Below the pieces are notes generated by a model. The model was not told the DNA's origin, did not search any database, and saw only the letters and a list, made by a program, of their open reading frames with translations. Of a stretch of 64,000 bases of DNA, positions 12,668 to 33,000 are shown one piece after another (positions within the stretch are counted from its first letter, which is position 1; every line of letters starts with the position of its first letter). The translations under genes were made by a program, and so were the position numbers. Source of the DNA: an uncultured Candidatus Saccharibacteria bacterium (GTDB taxonomy: Bacteria > Patescibacteriota > Minisyncoccia > Phycocordibacterales > UBA5272); assembly GCA_964464695.1 (NCBI GenBank), contig CAYXKW010000001.1, positions 36,810 to 100,809 on the forward strand, given 5' to 3'.

Positions 12668-12751
12668 GCGTCGGTGGTGGAGTGGTCAATCACAACAGAC
12701 TGTAAATCTGTCGCCCTTCGGGCTTCGCTGGTTCAAATCCAGCCCGGCGCA
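12668..12751 (+). tRNA. tRNA-Tyr (anticodon GTA)
   Basis: Manual fold: acceptor GCGTCGG/CCGGCGC (one G-U); anticodon stem ACAGA/TCTGT with loop CTGTAAA; long variable arm; T arm GCTGG-TTCAAAT-CCAGC; discriminator A. Confidence 0.85.
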
Positions 12752-12756
12752 CATGA

Positions 12757-28212: not shown

Positions 28213-28884
28213 ATGAATTCAATTCAATTGAAAAGCCTTCTGTCTGCCAGTGAAGCACTCTCTGTGCACGGTCCTAAAGGTTTTACTCTGGCTGTTAACT
28301 TAGTCGGGCATGAGACAGCCTTTGTGCTTCTCGTACATGAAGTAGCAAGAAGTATGCGGAACAAAAGCATGGCTTCAATCATTGATGAACTTTCAATGCA
28401 CGTAGAGCCTCGAGGGCTCTACGTGCACATAAAGGAACATTTGTTCTTTTATATAACAGAAGAAATGGCACTCGATACTTTCTCAGCTCACAGTATCGAA
28501 TGGAACGGTGTTTTGTGGCAAACATGCGAACATGCGTACCAAGCTGCAAAGTTTGATTATGAAGGTGGACACAGTGATATTGTTGACCAAATTAAAGCTG
28601 CACGTTCTCCATTTGTGGCAAAACGAATTGCTCGTGAGCACAAAAACAAAGTAAAGAAAAACTGGAGTAAAGAAAAAGTTGGAGTAATGAGGCAATTCAT
28701 TCGTCTCAAAATAAAACAGCATTATGACGTTAAATCCTACCTTGTGGCAACAGGTAGCAAGATTCTCGTAGAGAATTCTAGAACTGACAGATTCTGGGGA
28801 AGCGGTCATGATTTCACAGGACTTAATCATACAGGGATACTCTGGATGGAAGCCAGAGATGACACAAGGTCGGGGGTAATCTAA
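28213..28884 (+). CDS. NADAR-domain (YbiA-like, DUF1768) protein with about 70-aa N-terminal extension
   Basis: WQTCEHAYQAAKF, SPFVAKRIAREH and DRFWGSGHDFTGLNHTGILWMEAR match the YbiA/NADAR core, including the DxxWGxG-like motif. Directly upstream of leuS. Confidence 0.75.
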   Translation: MNSIQLKSLLSASEALSVHGPKGFTLAVNLVGHETAFVLLVHEVARSMRNKSMASIIDELSMHVEPRGLYVHIKEHLFFYITEEMALDTFSAHSIEWNGVLWQTCEHAYQAAKFDYEGGHSDIVDQIKAARSPFVAKRIAREHKNKVKKNWSKEKVGVMRQFIRLKIKQHYDVKSYLVATGSKILVENSRTDRFWGSGHDFTGLNHTGILWMEARDDTRSGVI

Positions 28885-28968: not shown

Positions 28969-31818
28969 ATGAAGCTGTACGATTATAAAAAATGTGATGC
29001 ATATTGGCAGGCAAAATGGGAAGAAGATAAGTTATATGAGACTCCAAAACTGCCAGGTGAGAAGAAAGTCTATGTGTTAGACATGTTCCCATACCCATCA
29101 GGTGAAGGGCTCCATGTCGGTCACCCAAAGGGATATATCGCTACAGATATCTATTCTCGGTTCAAGCGAATGAACGGGTATGATGTACTCCATCCAATGG
29201 GGTGGGATGCTTTTGGTTTACCTGCGGAACAGTTTGCGCTCAAACATAAAGTACAACCACGAGTTGCTGTTGAGAAAAATATAGCAAATTTTAAGCAACA
29301 ACTTTCTCATCTTGGTCTTGATTATGATTGGAAGCGAGAGATTAATACAACTGATTCGGAATTTTATAAGTGGACTCAATGGATTTTTACGAAGCTCTAC
29401 GAGAAAGGTTTAGCATATGAAAGTAATGAGCCGATTAATTGGTGTCCAACATGTAAGACAGGTCTCGCTAATGAAGATCTGAATGGAATTCTTTGTGAAC
29501 GATGTGATAGTGTTGTCGAGAAAAAACCACTCAGGCAGTGGGTGCTTAAGATTACTGACTATGCAGACAGGATGATTAAGGATTTAGATCTACTTAAGTG
29601 GCCAGAAGGTATCAAGACAGCACAGAAAAATTGGATAGGAAGAAGTGAAGGTGCAGAATTTGAATTCAAGCTCACTGATGTAAAAGACCATACAGATGGA
29701 CAGATGTCAGTAAAGGTATTCACAACACGAGCGGATACATTATTTGGCGTAACGTTTGTGGCTATATCTGCAGAAATGGCAAAAACATGGCTAGACGCTG
29801 GATGGGAAACAAATAAAGATGTGACAGAGTATGTTACTAACACACTTGAAGAACAGAAAAAAGAAAATGACTATTCTGTCATTCCAGAAAAAACTGGAGT
29901 ATATTCTGGAGTTAACGCGCTACATCCAGCAACAGGGGAGAAAGTTCCTGTATGGATTGCCAACTATGTGGTTGGGGGTGTTGGAACTGGTGCGCTTATG
30001 GGTGTACCTGCGCACGATGAGCGTGATAATGAATTTGCTAAAAAATATGATTTGCCGATTACCCAAGTTATTCTTCCTGAAACAGGTATTCCTCAGCAAA
30101 ATCCTGAATTACGGAAAAGTATTGTTGCAATTCTTTGGAATAAAAAAGATGATACTTTTTTAAGTATTGATTGGGGCAAGGAAATGGGGGGAAATCTTTT
30201 TATTGGTGGCGGTTTGGAAAATAATGAAGACGTTATAGATTGTGCTATAAGAGAAATTCGTGAAGAAACTGGCTACACCACATTTTTAAACCTTGCGACA
30301 ACATCTGTAATTTATCACAATTATTTTGCGCACTCAAAAAATGTAGGAAGAAGGATAGAAGCAACTGGGTTACTCTTTGAACTTACAGGAGATGAGCAAG
30401 TTCCTCTAGAGCTTGAAGAAAATGAGAAGAATAAGTTTACTGTTACATGGTTATCACGCAACCAAGTCAAAGCACAGATACAAGATGAACTGCACGCACT
30501 TGTGTTTGCTATCATGGTAAACGATACAATTTATACGGGAAACGGCATACTCACTAATTCAGTTACTTGTGATGGGCTAACAAGTGATGAAGCGAAGGTA
30601 AAAATAGTTGAAAAGTTTGGTGGTAAAAAAGTGGTGCGGTATAAATTACAGGATTGGGTTTTTGCACGTCAAAGATATTGGGGAGAACCTTTCCCAGTTG
30701 TTCGGGACAAAGAAGGAAAGGTGTACATGGTAGATGAAAGCGAGTTACCAGTACTCTTGCCTCAAGTAGAGCAATACGAGCCAACAGGAACAGGAGAATC
30801 ACCTCTTGCCGCAATAACTGATTGGGTAAACGTAAAGGGTGTCATCACTGAAAAAGGAACCTTCAAACAAGATCCAAACGGGGAAGTGTTTACTCGCGAA
30901 ACAAATACCATGCCACAGTGGGCGGGTTCATCATGGTACTATCTCAGATTCCTTGATCCTCATAATGAAAAAGCACTTGTTGATAAAGAGATAGAAAAAG
31001 CGTGGGGAGAAGTTAACGTCTATGTTGGAGGGGATCATGCAACACGACATCTTATTTACGCACGCTTCTGGCATAAGTTTTTATATGACATCGGTGTTGT
31101 GAGCACAGAAGAGCCATTTTCTCGACTTGAATTCTTAGGATTTATTCTTGCCGAAGATGGGAGAAAGATGAGTAAGCGTTGGGGGAATATCATCAATCCA
31201 GACGATGTTGTAAATGAGTATGGAGCAGACACACTTAGAGTCTATGAGATGTTCATGGCACCATTTGACCAAACAGCAAGTTGGAGTACTTCGAGTATCA
31301 AGGGGTCAGATAAGTTTTTGGATAAGGTGTACGCACTCTCAAAGAAAATAAGTGATACGAGTACTGTAGAATCAGACCTTCATAAGACAATTAAAAAAGT
31401 AGGGGAGGATATCGAGAATTTTAAGTTTAATACGGTGGTTTCATCGATGATGATACTCCTTAATTCGATGGAATCTGGGAGTTTTACAAAGAGTGACTAT
31501 CTGGTATTTCTGCAATTATTAGCTCCATTTGCCCCTCATGTTACGGAACAGTTATGGAACGATCAGGGTCAAGCTGGGTCTATTCATAAGTCTCCGTGGC
31601 CAACATACGATGAAAGTAAATTACTAGACTCTGTTGTCACTATGGCAATTCAAATTGCAGGGAAGATGCGAGGAACCATTGAAATACAAAGAGATTCTGA
31701 GGATTCGCAAGTTGTAGAGGTTGTAAAAAATCACGAAATGTATAAGAAATATGTTGGGGAAATTGAACCAAAAAAGGTCATCGTTGTGAAGAATAAAATA
31801 GTAAATATCGTCATTTAG
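28969..31818 (+). CDS. leuS: Leucyl-tRNA synthetase containing an inserted Nudix hydrolase domain
   Basis: HIGH-type PYPSGEGLHVGHPKGY. Editing motifs TTRADTLFGV and GTGALMGVPAHDERD. YKLQDWVFARQRYWGEPFP. KMSKRWGN. 949 aa. Confidence 0.95.
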   Translation: MKLYDYKKCDAYWQAKWEEDKLYETPKLPGEKKVYVLDMFPYPSGEGLHVGHPKGYIATDIYSRFKRMNGYDVLHPMGWDAFGLPAEQFALKHKVQPRVAVEKNIANFKQQLSHLGLDYDWKREINTTDSEFYKWTQWIFTKLYEKGLAYESNEPINWCPTCKTGLANEDLNGILCERCDSVVEKKPLRQWVLKITDYADRMIKDLDLLKWPEGIKTAQKNWIGRSEGAEFEFKLTDVKDHTDGQMSVKVFTTRADTLFGVTFVAISAEMAKTWLDAGWETNKDVTEYVTNTLEEQKKENDYSVIPEKTGVYSGVNALHPATGEKVPVWIANYVVGGVGTGALMGVPAHDERDNEFAKKYDLPITQVILPETGIPQQNPELRKSIVAILWNKKDDTFLSIDWGKEMGGNLFIGGGLENNEDVIDCAIREIREETGYTTFLNLATTSVIYHNYFAHSKNVGRRIEATGLLFELTGDEQVPLELEENEKNKFTVTWLSRNQVKAQIQDELHALVFAIMVNDTIYTGNGILTNSVTCDGLTSDEAKVKIVEKFGGKKVVRYKLQDWVFARQRYWGEPFPVVRDKEGKVYMVDESELPVLLPQVEQYEPTGTGESPLAAITDWVNVKGVITEKGTFKQDPNGEVFTRETNTMPQWAGSSWYYLRFLDPHNEKALVDKEIEKAWGEVNVYVGGDHATRHLIYARFWHKFLYDIGVVSTEEPFSRLEFLGFILAEDGRKMSKRWGNIINPDDVVNEYGADTLRVYEMFMAPFDQTASWSTSSIKGSDKFLDKVYALSKKISDTSTVESDLHKTIKKVGEDIENFKFNTVVSSMMILLNSMESGSFTKSDYLVFLQLLAPFAPHVTEQLWNDQGQAGSIHKSPWPTYDESKLLDSVVTMAIQIAGKMRGTIEIQRDSEDSQVVEVVKNHEMYKKYVGEIEPKKVIVVKNKIVNIVI
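30106..30528 (+). other. Nudix hydrolase domain embedded in LeuS (about aa 380-520)
   Basis: Complete Nudix box GGGLENNEDVIDCAIREIREETGY (GX5EX7REUXEEXGU), preceded by a VAILWNKKDDTFLSIDWGK beta strand typical of Nudix folds. Inserted between the editing-domain motif and the NGILTNS...YKLQDW segment. Confidence 0.75.
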
Positions 31819-31891: not shown

Positions 31892-32920
31892 ATGTCAGGA
31901 ATCACCTTTAAACCTAAAGCCGTTTCTAAAAAGCTTCTTACGACGCTTAACCCACGAACACGAGAGATCGTGGTTAATCGTTATGGTCTCGAAAAAGAGA
32001 ACAGAATGACTCTTGAGGCAATCGGTAAGACATATGATATTACTCGTGAACGTGTTCGTCAGATTGAGAACTTCGCTCTTACTTCTATTAAGAAGTCAAA
32101 GGAGTATAAGGAGCATCTTTTTATTTTTGATGAATTACGAAAGACGGTTTCTGAGCTTGGATCTGTTGTTTCTGAGGATCATCTCATGAGACACATCTCA
32201 AAGGATCCTGTAATTCAAAATCATATTAATCTATACTTAGCTCTTGGTGAAGATTTTAAGAAGCATAAGGAAGACGATCATTTCTACTCTCACTTTACAA
32301 CAGATGACAAGACGGCAATGCATGTTCGTGAAGCGCTTTCAAAGCTCTACGGTTCAATTAATGAAGAAGACCTAGTAACTGAAGAAGAAGTGTTCTCACG
32401 TTTTATGGGACACCTTACAGAACTTATTTCAGAGTACAAGGATAACAAGGATATTATCTATAGATATCTAGCGCTCTCAAAAGTTATTGGTAAAAACCAA
32501 CTAAGTGAATGGGGAAGAACATCTTCTCCGCATGTTAAAGCTCGTGGCATCAAAGACTATGCATATCTTATTATGCGTCGAGCTAACAAGCCAATGCACT
32601 TCAAGGATGTTGCACAAGAAATTAATAAAACATTTGGTAAAAAGGCGCATGTAGCAACTTGTCACAATGAACTCATTAAGGACTCACGTTTTGTACTAGT
32701 TGGACGAGGGATGTATGGTCTTAAGGACTGGGGTCACACTGGAGGAGTAGTTCGTGATGTTATCACCGAAGTTCTTAAAGAATCAGGACGACCACTTCCA
32801 AAAGATGAAGTTATCAAACGAGTTCTTGCAAAGAGAATTGTAAAACCAAACACTGTTCTCGTTAATCTTCAAAATACAAAATACTTCCGAAAGGTTGCTG
32901 GAGATTACACTTTGGCGTAA
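31892..32920 (+). CDS. Sigma-70 region-4 HTH / HARE-HTH domain protein
   Basis: N-terminal TLEAIGKTYDITRERVRQIENFAL resembles sigma-70 region 4. C-terminal KDSRFVLVGRGMYGLKDWG resembles the HARE-HTH of RNAP delta-like proteins. Confidence 0.55.
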   Translation: MSGITFKPKAVSKKLLTTLNPRTREIVVNRYGLEKENRMTLEAIGKTYDITRERVRQIENFALTSIKKSKEYKEHLFIFDELRKTVSELGSVVSEDHLMRHISKDPVIQNHINLYLALGEDFKKHKEDDHFYSHFTTDDKTAMHVREALSKLYGSINEEDLVTEEEVFSRFMGHLTELISEYKDNKDIIYRYLALSKVIGKNQLSEWGRTSSPHVKARGIKDYAYLIMRRANKPMHFKDVAQEINKTFGKKAHVATCHNELIKDSRFVLVGRGMYGLKDWGHTGGVVRDVITEVLKESGRPLPKDEVIKRVLAKRIVKPNTVLVNLQNTKYFRKVAGDYTLA

Positions 32921-32967
32921 TAGAAGCTTTTAGCCTTTGGCTATGAGCCGTTAGCCTAAATACAATA

Positions 32968-33000
32968 CAAAAGCGACCTCCAGAGGAGGCCGCTTTTGTG
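32968..33000 (+). terminator. Hairpin terminator within a GCTAA-repeat-rich intergenic region
   Basis: aaaagcgacctcc-agag-gaggccgctttt. Flanked by ttagcc/ggcta motifs (32925-32960) and gctaacagctaacagctaaatgctaag (33010-33037). Confidence 0.5.

Follow-up and report, generated by a model that had tools for sequence, protein, structure and literature searches.

An exchangeable predicted Nudix hydrolase module nested in the editing domain of leucyl-tRNA synthetase in Patescibacteria

A leuS gene with a nested Nudix module

The window, the whole 64-kb stretch of DNA that was analysed, carries a leuS gene on its forward strand, preceded by a NADAR-domain gene, with the following features.

28213–28884, forward strand: NADAR-domain gene immediately preceding leuS, 84 nt away, in a variable slot (PF08719, 91 bits)
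28969–31818, forward strand: leuS open reading frame, 949 aa, bacterial-type LeuRS with nested Nudix module (matches to TIGR00396 and 1h3n)
29113–29124, forward strand: HIGH signature H49-V-G-H52, class I catalytic site (translation)
29626–30081, forward strand: CP1 editing domain, part 1, aa 220–371, including TTRADT and D350/D353 (PF13603)
30082–30525, forward strand: nested predicted Nudix hydrolase module, aa 372–519, a "type 9" cassette
30208–30276, forward strand: Nudix box, predicted metal-binding catalytic helix, AlphaFold2 (AF2) helix 422–434 (motif match, AF2)
30526–30639, forward strand: remainder of CP1 and return strand, aa 520–557, IYTGNGILTNS ... GGKKVVR (T. thermophilus position 376 onward, AF2)
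30640–31818, forward strand: catalytic domain, second half (YKLQDW...), then the anticodon-binding domain (aa 801–912) and the C-terminal domain
31165–31179, forward strand: KMSKR, aa 733–737

An earlier sequence-only reading of this DNA had assigned the open reading frame to LeuS, and the coordinates it gave are exact. In a profile search the 949-residue product scores 890.4 bits against TIGR00396 leuS_bact (cutoff 548.4), in two stretches with the insert between them, and it matches Thermus thermophilus LeuRS (1h3n) with an E-value of 1e-180. All the LeuS motifs quoted earlier are found in the translation, namely PYPSGEGLHVGHPKGY (aa 41–56), the editing motifs TTRADTLFGV (aa 252–261) and GVPAHDERD (aa 345–353), YKLQDWVFARQRYWG (aa 558–572) and KMSKRWGN (aa 733–740), as is the textbook Nudix box. 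H49, G51 and H52 are invariant among 73 LeuRS relatives, in which the HIGH and KMSKS signatures are invariant or nearly so. Together with the ZN-1 cysteines, the threonine-rich motif and editing aspartate of CP1, and the anticodon-binding and C-terminal domains, these signatures are common to the T. thermophilus (1h3n/2byt) and E. coli (4aq7) enzymes. Unlike T. thermophilus LeuRS, the query lacks the leucine-specific domain (T. thermophilus 577–634; query residues 728–734 cover 579–638 in the alignment to 1h3n). Since this domain is not universal among bacterial LeuRS, its absence leaves membership of the family unaffected. These comparisons show a complete LeuRS of a Patescibacteria (CPR) bacterium that looks editing-competent. 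A promoter and terminator scan near leuS gave consensus-level matches only.

CP1 is a textbook case of a domain inserted within the Rossmann fold. The insertion had been described as lying in the LeuS core, in the loop between the editing motif and the YxLxDW segment; the insertion and the loop stand, but on the alignments the host is the editing domain, CP1, in a loop on its surface, and not the catalytic core proper. PF13603 matches residues 220–374 with model positions 1–146 of 185 (180 bits), which places the insertion point at about position 146. Query residues 3–378 align with T. thermophilus 3–371 and residues 521–728 with 376–579, so that about 142 residues stand in place of 4. The 148-residue Nudix module starts 19 residues past the editing residue Asp353, between the HDxRD editing motif and YxLxDW, at a site where close LeuRS relatives without an insert have a loop of 3–33 residues. 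Beyond it, AF2 predicts a strand (526–528), a helix (539–549) and a second strand (553–557). T252, T253, R254, D256, T257, H349, D350, R352 and D353 are invariant across the 73 relatives with or without an insert, so the Nudix is an additional module beside a retained editing domain, as had been proposed. A survey of domain insertions classed LeuRS PF13603 as 100% "insert", with zero host instances in 213 events (PMC13114784, Protein Sci 2026); in the query, unlike the cases in that survey, CP1 itself receives an insert, so that one domain is nested within another nested domain.

A Nudix fold had been placed at about residues 380–520, in agreement with the Pfam NUDIX match (PF00293) to residues 382–501, which scores 39.2 bits within the full protein; the excised segment alone gives 43.3 bits (cutoff 21.1). 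The box segment, GGGLENNEDVIDCAIREIREETGY (aa 413–436, nt 30205–30276), fits GX5EX7REUXEEXGU exactly (G414, E420, R428-E429-I430, R431, E432-E433, T434, G435-Y436), and a six-frame scan of the whole window revealed no second Nudix box. Residues 380–516 form a canonical Nudix alpha/beta/alpha unit in the full-length AF2 model (pLDDT 80–96), and the module modelled alone reached a mean pLDDT of 93.6 and a pTM of 0.87, bearing out the suggestion of an independently folded lobe. The models show a predicted Nudix pyrophosphohydrolase of 148 residues that would fold by itself and keeps its catalytic residues.

Among the known Nudix subfamily models searched, none passes its own cutoff on the module. 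RppH/NudH models of NCBIfam (PRK00714 among them) score 14–17 bits (cutoffs 116–139), MutT 8-oxo-dGTPase models 16.8 bits (TIGR00586, cutoff 97.9) and 15.8 bits (PRK10776, 148), and ADP-ribose pyrophosphatase models 19.4 bits (NudE, 169) and 15.6 bits (TIGR00052, 79.6). The best structural neighbour is 2azw, a structure without known function, and others include RppH, decapping Nudix enzymes, small ApnA hydrolases, MutT1 and NadM-Nudix.

Across 22 type-9 sequences the box residues R57, E58, E61 and E62 (module numbering) are invariant; type 9 has 30 invariant positions, those outside the box including R11, S13, W31, H79, Y81, S85-K86, R90, E115 and H138. Between the query and its nearest homologue (P0001, 88% identical), dN/dS is 0.115 for the insert (dS about 1.0), 0.041 for the N-terminal core and 0.034 for the C-terminal core. 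The strict box is kept in 77 of 87 inserts, query included, and is degenerate in a minority of relatives (P0025, with RK; P0120, with EK; P0072). These comparisons confirmed that the nested Nudix appears intact and under selective maintenance, and Mg2+/Mn2+-dependent pyrophosphohydrolase activity is supported indirectly by the catalytic-residue conservation and the dN/dS of 0.115.

Distribution and exchange of the nested modules

Surveying LeuS orthologues, as had been advised, we found a Nudix-sized insert at the site in 86 of the 120 closest LeuRS. A word-indexed search with the insert alone matched only P0121 and was replaced by an exhaustive profile search of 1.84 billion representatives, in which 108 of the best 149 matches were LeuRS-flanked. 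The type-9 signature was found at 67 GTDB species loci, all nested in LeuRS, spanning groups labelled Saccharibacteria, Paceibacterota, Kaiser-, Giovannoni-, Adler- and Lloydbacteria. Hundreds of further database proteins have the nested architecture, and nested Nudix LeuRS proteins already bear Pfam labels in databases. On this distribution the nested Nudix is a lineage-wide Patescibacteria feature, not a singleton. A chimeric assembly, the refutation foreseen earlier, is ruled out by independent contigs and by the 67 species genomes with the same architecture; P0001 lies on an independent NCBI MAG contig with the same architecture and a syntenic locus. The module is, as these comparisons indicate, dispensable over short time scales, since 33 of the 120 close LeuRS are without it and some of these are 94–96% core-identical to carriers.

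The inserts sort into 11 types with between-type identities of 17–37%, and insert identity is uncorrelated with core identity (Spearman −0.01). Query and P0112 share 63% of the insert and 56% of the core, whereas query and P0007 share 23% and 85%, respectively. Among pairs with core identity of at least 95%, 2 of 5 have different cassette states, as do 8 of 11 at 90–95%. P0004 and P0029 are 99–100% identical per 100-residue block outside the site and about 20% inside it. At the DNA level, L001, an insert-less locus, and its orthologue L003, which carries a type 2 insert, are 85–90% identical in the flanks, and the breakpoints are sharp. These two, the closest relative L079 and the window share the order DUF5671, leuS, sigma70_r4/HARE-HTH, a protein of about 500 aa, YceG and RNase_T, a synteny that rules out insert-less LeuRS being paralogues. 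In another state found among relatives, the same CP1 loop is filled by an ANT(2'')-like nucleotidyltransferase module.

The alignments show the loop to behave as a site of cassette exchange, occupied by at least 11 distant Nudix types, the ANT(2'')-like module or a short loop. Cassette states are uncorrelated with the LeuRS phylogeny and are swapped between near-identical leuS alleles, in a tract that takes in about 20 flanking CP1 residues. Type 9 is the oldest and most widespread type; within it, mean identity is 54% for the insert and 61% for the core. It is 47% and 39–40% identical to free-standing Nudix proteins and 22–36% identical to other nested types. Uniformly fast divergence of a single ancestral insert cannot by itself explain this pattern: the type-9 insert is no faster than the core, cores 85–98% identical hold inserts about 20% identical, and type 9 is nearer to free-standing Nudix proteins than to other nested types.

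Nesting extends to other sites, folds and hosts. In some relatives a single LeuRS has as many as three Nudix modules; at least three sites are used, including positions before CP1 and at about residues 637–670 in the catalytic domain, and there are also relatives with ASCH, methyltransferase or Ser_hydrolase inserts. Nudix modules related to the query's are also nested in RNase PH and M17 peptidase. A DPANN archaeal ProRS has its nested Nudix after the anticodon-binding domain and before the C-terminal domain, a region without an editing domain. Other nested folds are GNAT, in an M17 peptidase, and a histidine phosphatase (His_Phos_1), in an IleRS. The nesting of other enzyme classes in the same LeuRS, and of related Nudix modules in RNase PH and M17 peptidase, speaks against a synthetase-linked substrate and fits a non-specific "permissive carrier".

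NCBIfam model NF040702, "ileS_w_GNAT", is a curator-recognised case of a class Ia synthetase with an extra small-molecule-modifying enzyme domain. The query resembles it in this respect, but differs in the synthetase and the inserted fold and is not a member (70 bits, cutoff 1999); we know of no cassette polymorphism in that family. Nudix domains are also covalently joined to a functionally related enzyme in NadM-Nudix (NMNAT/ADPRase) and mycobacterial MutT1 (Nudix plus histidine phosphatase). There the domains are fused end to end and the pairing makes defined metabolic sense, whereas the query has internal nesting in a translation enzyme, at a site with many non-orthologous Nudix alleles.

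Free-standing relatives and neighbouring genes

Six free-standing Nudix relatives, picked by the extent of surrounding sequence, were examined for their neighbourhoods, a small sample in which four lie within two genes of a synthetase gene. One, P0129 (47% identical to the insert), is 4 bp upstream of valS; another is 12 bp downstream of argS with ileS nearby; at the P0165 locus, a standalone Nudix gene sits 1 bp upstream of a Nudix-bearing leuS; and a further one is two genes away from a ProRS with its own nested Nudix. To our knowledge ArgRS makes no Ap4A. The standalone Nudix of L004 is not a frameshifted LeuRS, having its own ATG and stop, with TsaD and ValRS as neighbours. Two of the six adjoin DNA glycosylase genes (fpg or UDG-like), a MutT-like context.

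The NADAR gene, a member of an ADP-ribose-related hydrolase family, also precedes leuS in L079. It is not found upstream of leuS in L001 or L003 and is absent from most related leuS loci; at the P0165 locus, the standalone Nudix gene occupies its slot.

Possible functions of the module

The best explanation overall, to which we give about an even chance, is that LeuRS carries an exchangeable Nudix cassette which clears synthetase-related nucleotide pyrophosphates. Homologous recombination between leuS alleles would move the cassettes, and the module, though tethered to LeuRS, would be a Mg2+-dependent Nudix hydrolase in its own right, with aminoacylation and editing continuing unchanged beside it. 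In what is the weakest step of the proposal, it may clear nucleotide pyrophosphates that aminoacyl-tRNA synthetases generate or are disturbed by. Dinucleoside polyphosphates arise when ATP or NTP attacks the aminoacyl-adenylate, and our best guess is that the likeliest substrates would be Ap3A, Ap4A or Np4N, or related nucleotide by-products or analogues. The overall role would be on-site nucleotide housecleaning in minimal-genome organisms. In known systems, synthetase-made Ap4A (for example from LysRS or LysU) is cleared by NUDT2 in animals or RppH/ApaH in bacteria, an axis covered by the reviews PMC10148737 and PMC7705103. By analogy, the query may likewise pair a dinucleoside-polyphosphate-capable synthetase with a Nudix-type pyrophosphohydrolase, although these are separate proteins there and one polypeptide here, and RppH/NudH models score far under cutoff on the module.

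Somewhat unlikely, in our estimate, is that LeuRS, like RNase PH, M17 peptidase or ProRS on occasion, simply serves as a permissive, constitutively expressed carrier of a Nudix uncoupled from leucylation and tRNA-Leu. The module would then serve general nucleotide-pool sanitation or salvage (MutT-like, ADP-ribose or NTP-to-NMP), its nesting a side effect of the streamlining that the genomes of ultra-small symbionts undergo. This would account for the many unrelated Nudix types, up to three per LeuRS at three or more sites, for the ASCH, methyltransferase, Ser_hydrolase and ANT(2'')-like enzymes on the same scaffolds, for the RNase PH and M17 peptidase hosts, and for the frequent loss of the module in close relatives. 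The fpg or UDG-like neighbours of two of six standalone relatives and the independent ProRS fusion in DPANN archaea, also a reduced-genome group, point the same way. It fits less well with the strong host bias (LeuRS in 108 of the best 149 matches and in all 67 type-9 loci) and the reuse of one loop by at least 11 Nudix types. Also against it, four of six free-standing relatives lie at most two genes from a synthetase gene, compared with a rough chance estimate of about 5% per gene for an 800-gene genome with 20 synthetases.

CP1 handles the tRNA 3'-CCA end, which adjoins the 5' end of the acceptor stem, and for this reason we considered a tRNA-directed repair or decapping activity, which we judge unlikely. 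The module would strip a pyrophosphate-linked modification from tRNA-Leu before or during charging, candidates being a 5' NAD or Np4N cap, 3'-pyrophosphorylation and ADP-ribosylation. Its position within the editing domain, 19 residues past Asp353, is consistent with this, as are a related Nudix in RNase PH, a tRNA 3'-end processing enzyme, the ASCH (RNA-associated) and methyltransferase modules that co-occur in sister LeuRS, the NADAR gene upstream of leuS in the window and its closest relative, and the RppH and decapping enzymes among the structural neighbours. Yet Nudix modules also occur before CP1 and in the catalytic domain at about residues 637–670, the ProRS module sits in a protein region with no editing domain, the module has no evident RNA-binding extension, and most related loci are without NADAR.

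We think it quite unlikely that the CP1 loop of Patescibacteria LeuRS, along with comparable permissive sites that ultra-small symbionts have in other housekeeping enzymes, is a defence-island-like recombinational cassette locus within an essential translation enzyme, where target-embedded detoxification or immunity enzymes (diverse Nudix, ANT(2'')-like, elsewhere GNAT, methyltransferase and hydrolase) are swapped between strains under pressure from nucleotide-type toxins or synthetase inhibitors made by hosts or competitors. Very unlikely is the related view of the loop as a recombinational hot spot that swaps target-embedded resistance enzymes under diversifying selection, imposed by nucleotide-type synthetase inhibitors of the host or competitors (aminoacyl-adenylate mimics) or by toxic nucleotides. 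Classic resistance enzymes that modify small molecules belong to the Nudix, GNAT, NTase, methyltransferase and hydrolase families. Unrelated cassettes do occur within 98–100% identical LeuRS backgrounds, an ANT(2'')-like enzyme at the same site, GNAT domains in M17 peptidase and under "ileS_w_GNAT", and a histidine phosphatase in IleRS. LeuRS is the target of agrocin 84/TM84 (PMC5059758). Selection within a type is, however, purifying and not positive, random sets of inserts should also hold the most abundant small enzyme folds, and type 9 is vertically stable across the family's deepest splits.

A chimera, a selfish in-frame insertion, an intein or a non-catalytic relic can be dismissed as extremely improbable: the slightly lower GC of the insert (0.36 against about 0.40) and the minority of degenerate boxes are outweighed by the same architecture in independent contigs from many projects, an intact box, a dN/dS of 0.115 and a fold predicted at high confidence, while no flanking repeats were found around the insert, the segment domain search detected NUDIX alone and no Hint or endonuclease domain, and the junctions (QVI/LPETG and VND/TIYTG) do not fit what we take to be intein splice-junction residues.

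Aminoacyl-tRNA synthetases rank with the most conserved of enzymes, and those of bacteria rarely have extra domains. The sequence-only reading knew of no synthetase with an embedded Nudix, and our literature searches found no description of one; a swappable Nudix inside LeuRS appears not to have been described before. For annotation, some nested-Nudix LeuRS are named merely "class I tRNA ligase family protein", and where LeuRS serves as a phylogenetic marker, recombinant cassettes can distort alignments. For engineering, the CP1 loop offers a permissive site, validated in nature, at which domains can be inserted into LeuRS. An active-looking hydrolase sits in the proofreading domain of an essential synthetase across a phylum-level radiation and is swapped like an allele between near-identical genes. 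Should the module's substrates be dinucleoside polyphosphates made by the synthetase, it would be a natural fusion of Ap4A/Np4N synthesis and breakdown and would give an experimental handle on the decades-old question of their role as "alarmones". As a passenger or a defence cassette, it would represent a so far undescribed way in which minimal genomes carry and exchange accessory enzymes.

A Nudix module within the CP1 domain of LeuRS

28969–31818 (+): leuS ORF, 949 aa

The sequence-only reading had assigned this ORF to leucyl-tRNA synthetase (LeuRS), an identity borne out by a score of 890 bits against the NCBIfam bacterial LeuRS equivalog TIGR00396 (cutoff 548); every motif quoted in that reading was found in the ORF. 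Pfam matches comprise tRNA-synt_1, the LeuRS editing domain PF13603, Anticodon_1 and NUDIX (PF00293). Alignment to T. thermophilus LeuRS (1h3n) pairs query residues 3–378 with 3–371 and 521–728 with 376–579, placing ~142 query residues opposite four. The alignment upholds the proposed insertion into LeuRS but not its location in the core of the synthetase, as the insert lies inside CP1, the editing domain, 19 residues past the editing-site Asp353. The editing domain is retained around it, as had been suggested: PF13603 covers aa 220–374 (model positions 1–146 of 185) and the rest of CP1 resumes after the insert (aa 520–557). In the same 1h3n alignment, the leucine-specific domain (T. thermophilus 577–634) is absent from the query, which has ~6 residues in its place (aa 728–734, window 31150–31170).

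NUDIX PF00293 matches aa 382–501 with 39.2 bits in the full protein and 43.3 bits in the excised segment (gathering score 21.1). The Nudix box, described from the sequence as textbook, fits the consensus GX5EX7REUXEEXGU exactly (G414, E420, R428-E429-I430, E432-E433, G435-Y436), and no second such box is present in the six frames of the whole window. No NCBIfam Nudix equivalog came close to its cutoff with the query, and sequence and profile searches of the PDB returned weak matches only, centred on the box. In the AlphaFold2 model of the full-length query (73-sequence alignment; mean pLDDT 87.6, pTM 0.77), residues 380–516 form a complete Nudix alpha/beta/alpha unit with pLDDT 80–96. Modelled alone, from 22 sequences of its own class of nested module (type 9), the insert reached a pLDDT of 93.6 and a pTM of 0.87, consistent with an independently folded Nudix lobe.

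Thirty positions are invariant among type 9 inserts, many beyond the Nudix box (outside the box: R11, S13, W31, H79, Y81, S85-K86, R90, E115, F119, W123 and H138). At the junction, T372-G373 and R382/S384 of the query are invariant. Between the query and its nearest homologue, P0001 (locus L079), dN/dS was 0.115 for the insert, with an insert dS of ~1.0, and 0.041 and 0.034 for the N- and C-terminal core, respectively. The LeuRS is complete in other respects, and its CP1 carries a real, folded Nudix module that is under constraint and is very probably an active enzyme.

A survey of related LeuRS, covering the 120 closest in 5.8 billion proteins, found a Nudix-type insert of 139–160 aa at the same site in 86, a different module in one and only a 3–33-aa loop in 33, with source names from Patescibacteria groups (Nomurabacteria, Pacebacteria/Paceibacterota, Parcubacteria). 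When the query-type insert was searched as a profile against 1.84 billion cluster representatives, 850 matches reached E ≤ 1e-3 and 222 reached E ≤ 1e-10; LeuRS flanks were present in 108 among the best 149 new representatives matched. In GTDB contigs (one genome per species), all 67 loci with the type 9 signature had it nested in LeuRS: 63 with both flanks contiguous, two cut at contig ends and two with extra material after the module. These loci are labelled Saccharibacteria/Saccharimonadales, including the complete genomes CP025011 and OZ246411, Paceibacterota, and Kaiser-, Giovannoni-, Adler- and Lloydbacteria. Readings of the segment as an artefact, an intein or a relic are excluded. The two loci with extra material, L024 (4001–5005) and L041, have LeuRS ORFs of 1138 and 1198 aa; the Nudix tblastn matches of L024 spread over ~1 kb, which suggests a second module in tandem.

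The CP1 loop as a cassette site

Across the family, this loop is a cassette site at which modules are replaced and lost between near-identical alleles. Insert identity does not correlate with LeuRS core identity (Spearman −0.01; 772-column core): the query and P0112 share 56% of the core and 63% of the insert, and the query and P0007, P0009, P0014 and P0020 share 80–85% and 22–28%, respectively. Inserts sort into at least 11 types, with identities of 17–37% between types and 54–92% within a type. Type 9 accounts for 34 of the 87 insert sequences and is the sole type across the deepest core splits. Within it, mean identity is 54% for the insert and 61% for the core, a parallel divergence that gives type 9 the appearance of an ancestral insert passed on vertically. 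At shallower splits of the tree, proteins that lack an insert are interleaved with other insert types, and insert state is unlike in two of five pairs at core identity ≥95% and in eight of 11 at 90–95%.

The clearest example is the pair of LeuRS proteins P0004 (type 9) and P0029 (type 6), which match at 99–100 positions in every block of 100 residues to either side of the insert and have unrelated Nudix modules (~20% identity) between ‘...KKYGIEIK’ and ‘...EEAKKKIT’. Some 20 right-hand flanking CP1 residues are replaced as well, a pattern in the protein sequences that points to homologous recombination, the partner being a divergent leuS allele, rather than naked gene insertion. Exchange of cassettes would occur through homologous recombination of one leuS allele with another. 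In their DNA, L001, which lacks the insert, and L003, which has type 2, show 85–90% identity right up to sharp breakpoints. All insert types share their junctions, after ‘LPIxQ-V(I/V)’ and before ‘(Y/F)TxxG(I/V)-LxNS’, and no flanking repeats were found around the insert in the window. L001, L003, L079 and the window have a common gene order (DUF5671, leuS, sigma70_r4/HARE-HTH protein, ~500-aa protein, YceG, RNase_T); leuS with the insert and leuS without it (L001) are orthologues.

Type 9 is 47% identical to the free-standing Nudix protein P0129 and 39–40% to P0158 and P0177, and less so to other nested types. This proximity suggests that modules passed from a nested to a free state or the reverse, unless capture took place more than once.

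Nested modules and gene surroundings

Pfam mapping of relatives identified further nested modules.

P0136: two Nudix modules, aa 236–535, before CP1 only
P0201: one Nudix module, aa 245–357, before CP1 only
P0141: Nudix before CP1 (aa 257–360) and after CP1 (aa 548–685)
P0122, P0123: three Nudix modules in each LeuRS
P0008, P0011 and other 1123–1124-aa forms: second Nudix, ~aa 668–786
P0005, P0073: nested ASCH domain
P0058: nested methyltransferase
P0081, P0218: nested serine hydrolase
P0057 (LeuRS, 966 aa): aminoglycoside-2''-adenylyltransferase-like ANT(2'') module (PF10706) replacing Nudix in the CP1 loop, aa 391–475
P0270/P0283 (RNase PH; L005/L006 4001–5560): related Nudix between RNase_PH and RNase_PH_C; six near-identical cluster members, contigs up to 74 kb
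P0184 (1318 aa, ENA): M17 leucyl aminopeptidase with two GNAT acetyltransferase domains and one related Nudix domain, ahead of the catalytic domain
L080 2762–4693: archaeal-type ProRS with a related Nudix at aa 418–515, between the anticodon-binding and ProRS-C_1 domains

Only five of the 120 closest ProRS carry the nested Nudix, and their neighbours are labelled Nanoarchaeota/Woesearchaeota, pointing to an independent fusion in DPANN archaea. In L007–L009 (5386–8498), an IleRS-like protein of 1167 aa has a histidine phosphatase (PF00300) nested between two tRNA-synt_1 segments; its gene adjoins argS and a free-standing relative of the Nudix insert in the window. NCBIfam already contains a model of IleRS that carries a GNAT domain (NF040702). 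In the eight large window ORFs scanned, no nested extra enzyme domain was found; the large ORFs of the window encode ordinary housekeeping proteins (IF-2, ClpB, UvrA-like, class I RNR with ATP cones, RNase J, DnaE).

28213–28884 (+): NADAR-domain gene (PF08719, 91 bits), 84 nt upstream of leuS
31892–32920 (+): 342-aa protein with Sigma70_r4 and HARE-HTH domains, downstream neighbour of leuS
32967–32999: strong hairpin with a 15-bp stem, terminator-like on both strands, directly after the preceding gene
1554–1636: tRNA-Leu gene, anticodon TAG
12668–12752: tRNA-Tyr gene, anticodon GTA

The Sigma70_r4/HARE-HTH gene is conserved and syntenic in all related loci examined. The NADAR gene is also found in the closest relative, L079 (2247–2918), and is absent from L001 and L003. 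NADAR has a link to NAD/ADP-ribose chemistry, possibly but not necessarily related to the Nudix module. In L001 (200–583) and L003 (2760–3143), leuS is preceded at a distance of a few genes by a HIT-family gene (PF01230/DcpS_C); nucleotide-linked compounds are substrates of HIT enzymes as well.

Six free-standing relatives of the Nudix module, a small sample picked by the length of their contigs, were placed in gene context.

P0129: between tsaD and valS, with valS 4 bp downstream
P0271: follows argS by 12 bp, with ileS nearby
P0165: 1 bp ahead of a leuS with its own nested Nudix, between DUF5671 and leuS, the slot of NADAR in the window
P0158: two genes away from ProRS-Nudix
P0172: adjoins fpg
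P0171: adjoins a UDG-like gene and another Nudix

Synthetase genes lie near four of these six, in this small sample well above our own rough chance expectation. This Nudix clade is repeatedly associated with synthetases.

Possible functions and novelty

The module would hydrolyse a nucleoside-diphosphate-X compound, independently of leucylation, and its substrate would be connected with synthetase chemistry. The leading candidates, tentatively, would be dinucleoside polyphosphates: synthetases make them, and small ApnA/cap/DIPP-type Nudix enzymes dominate the structural neighbours. The main rival explanation is that LeuRS is merely a permissive carrier of housecleaning enzymes in streamlined genomes. 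This would account for the abundance of types and copies, for the range of enzyme classes and hosts, and for the frequent loss of the module, but leaves unexplained why LeuRS, and one loop in it, should be so strongly favoured, as well as the gene-neighbourhood signal. A role in tRNA-end repair or decapping is possible, as is one in conflict or detoxification.

The architecture is present in hundreds of database entries with automatic Pfam labels. The sequence-only reading knew of no described aminoacyl-tRNA synthetase with an embedded Nudix; full-text literature searches likewise found no paper on such nesting or on the cassette behaviour. A 2026 survey of domain insertions reported the LeuRS editing domain as always the insert and never the host (PMC13114784); the Nudix-bearing LeuRS family is an exception, as here the editing domain is the host. 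Synthetases with accessory domains and domain insertions are both known kinds; what is unusual in this family is the evolutionary dynamic.
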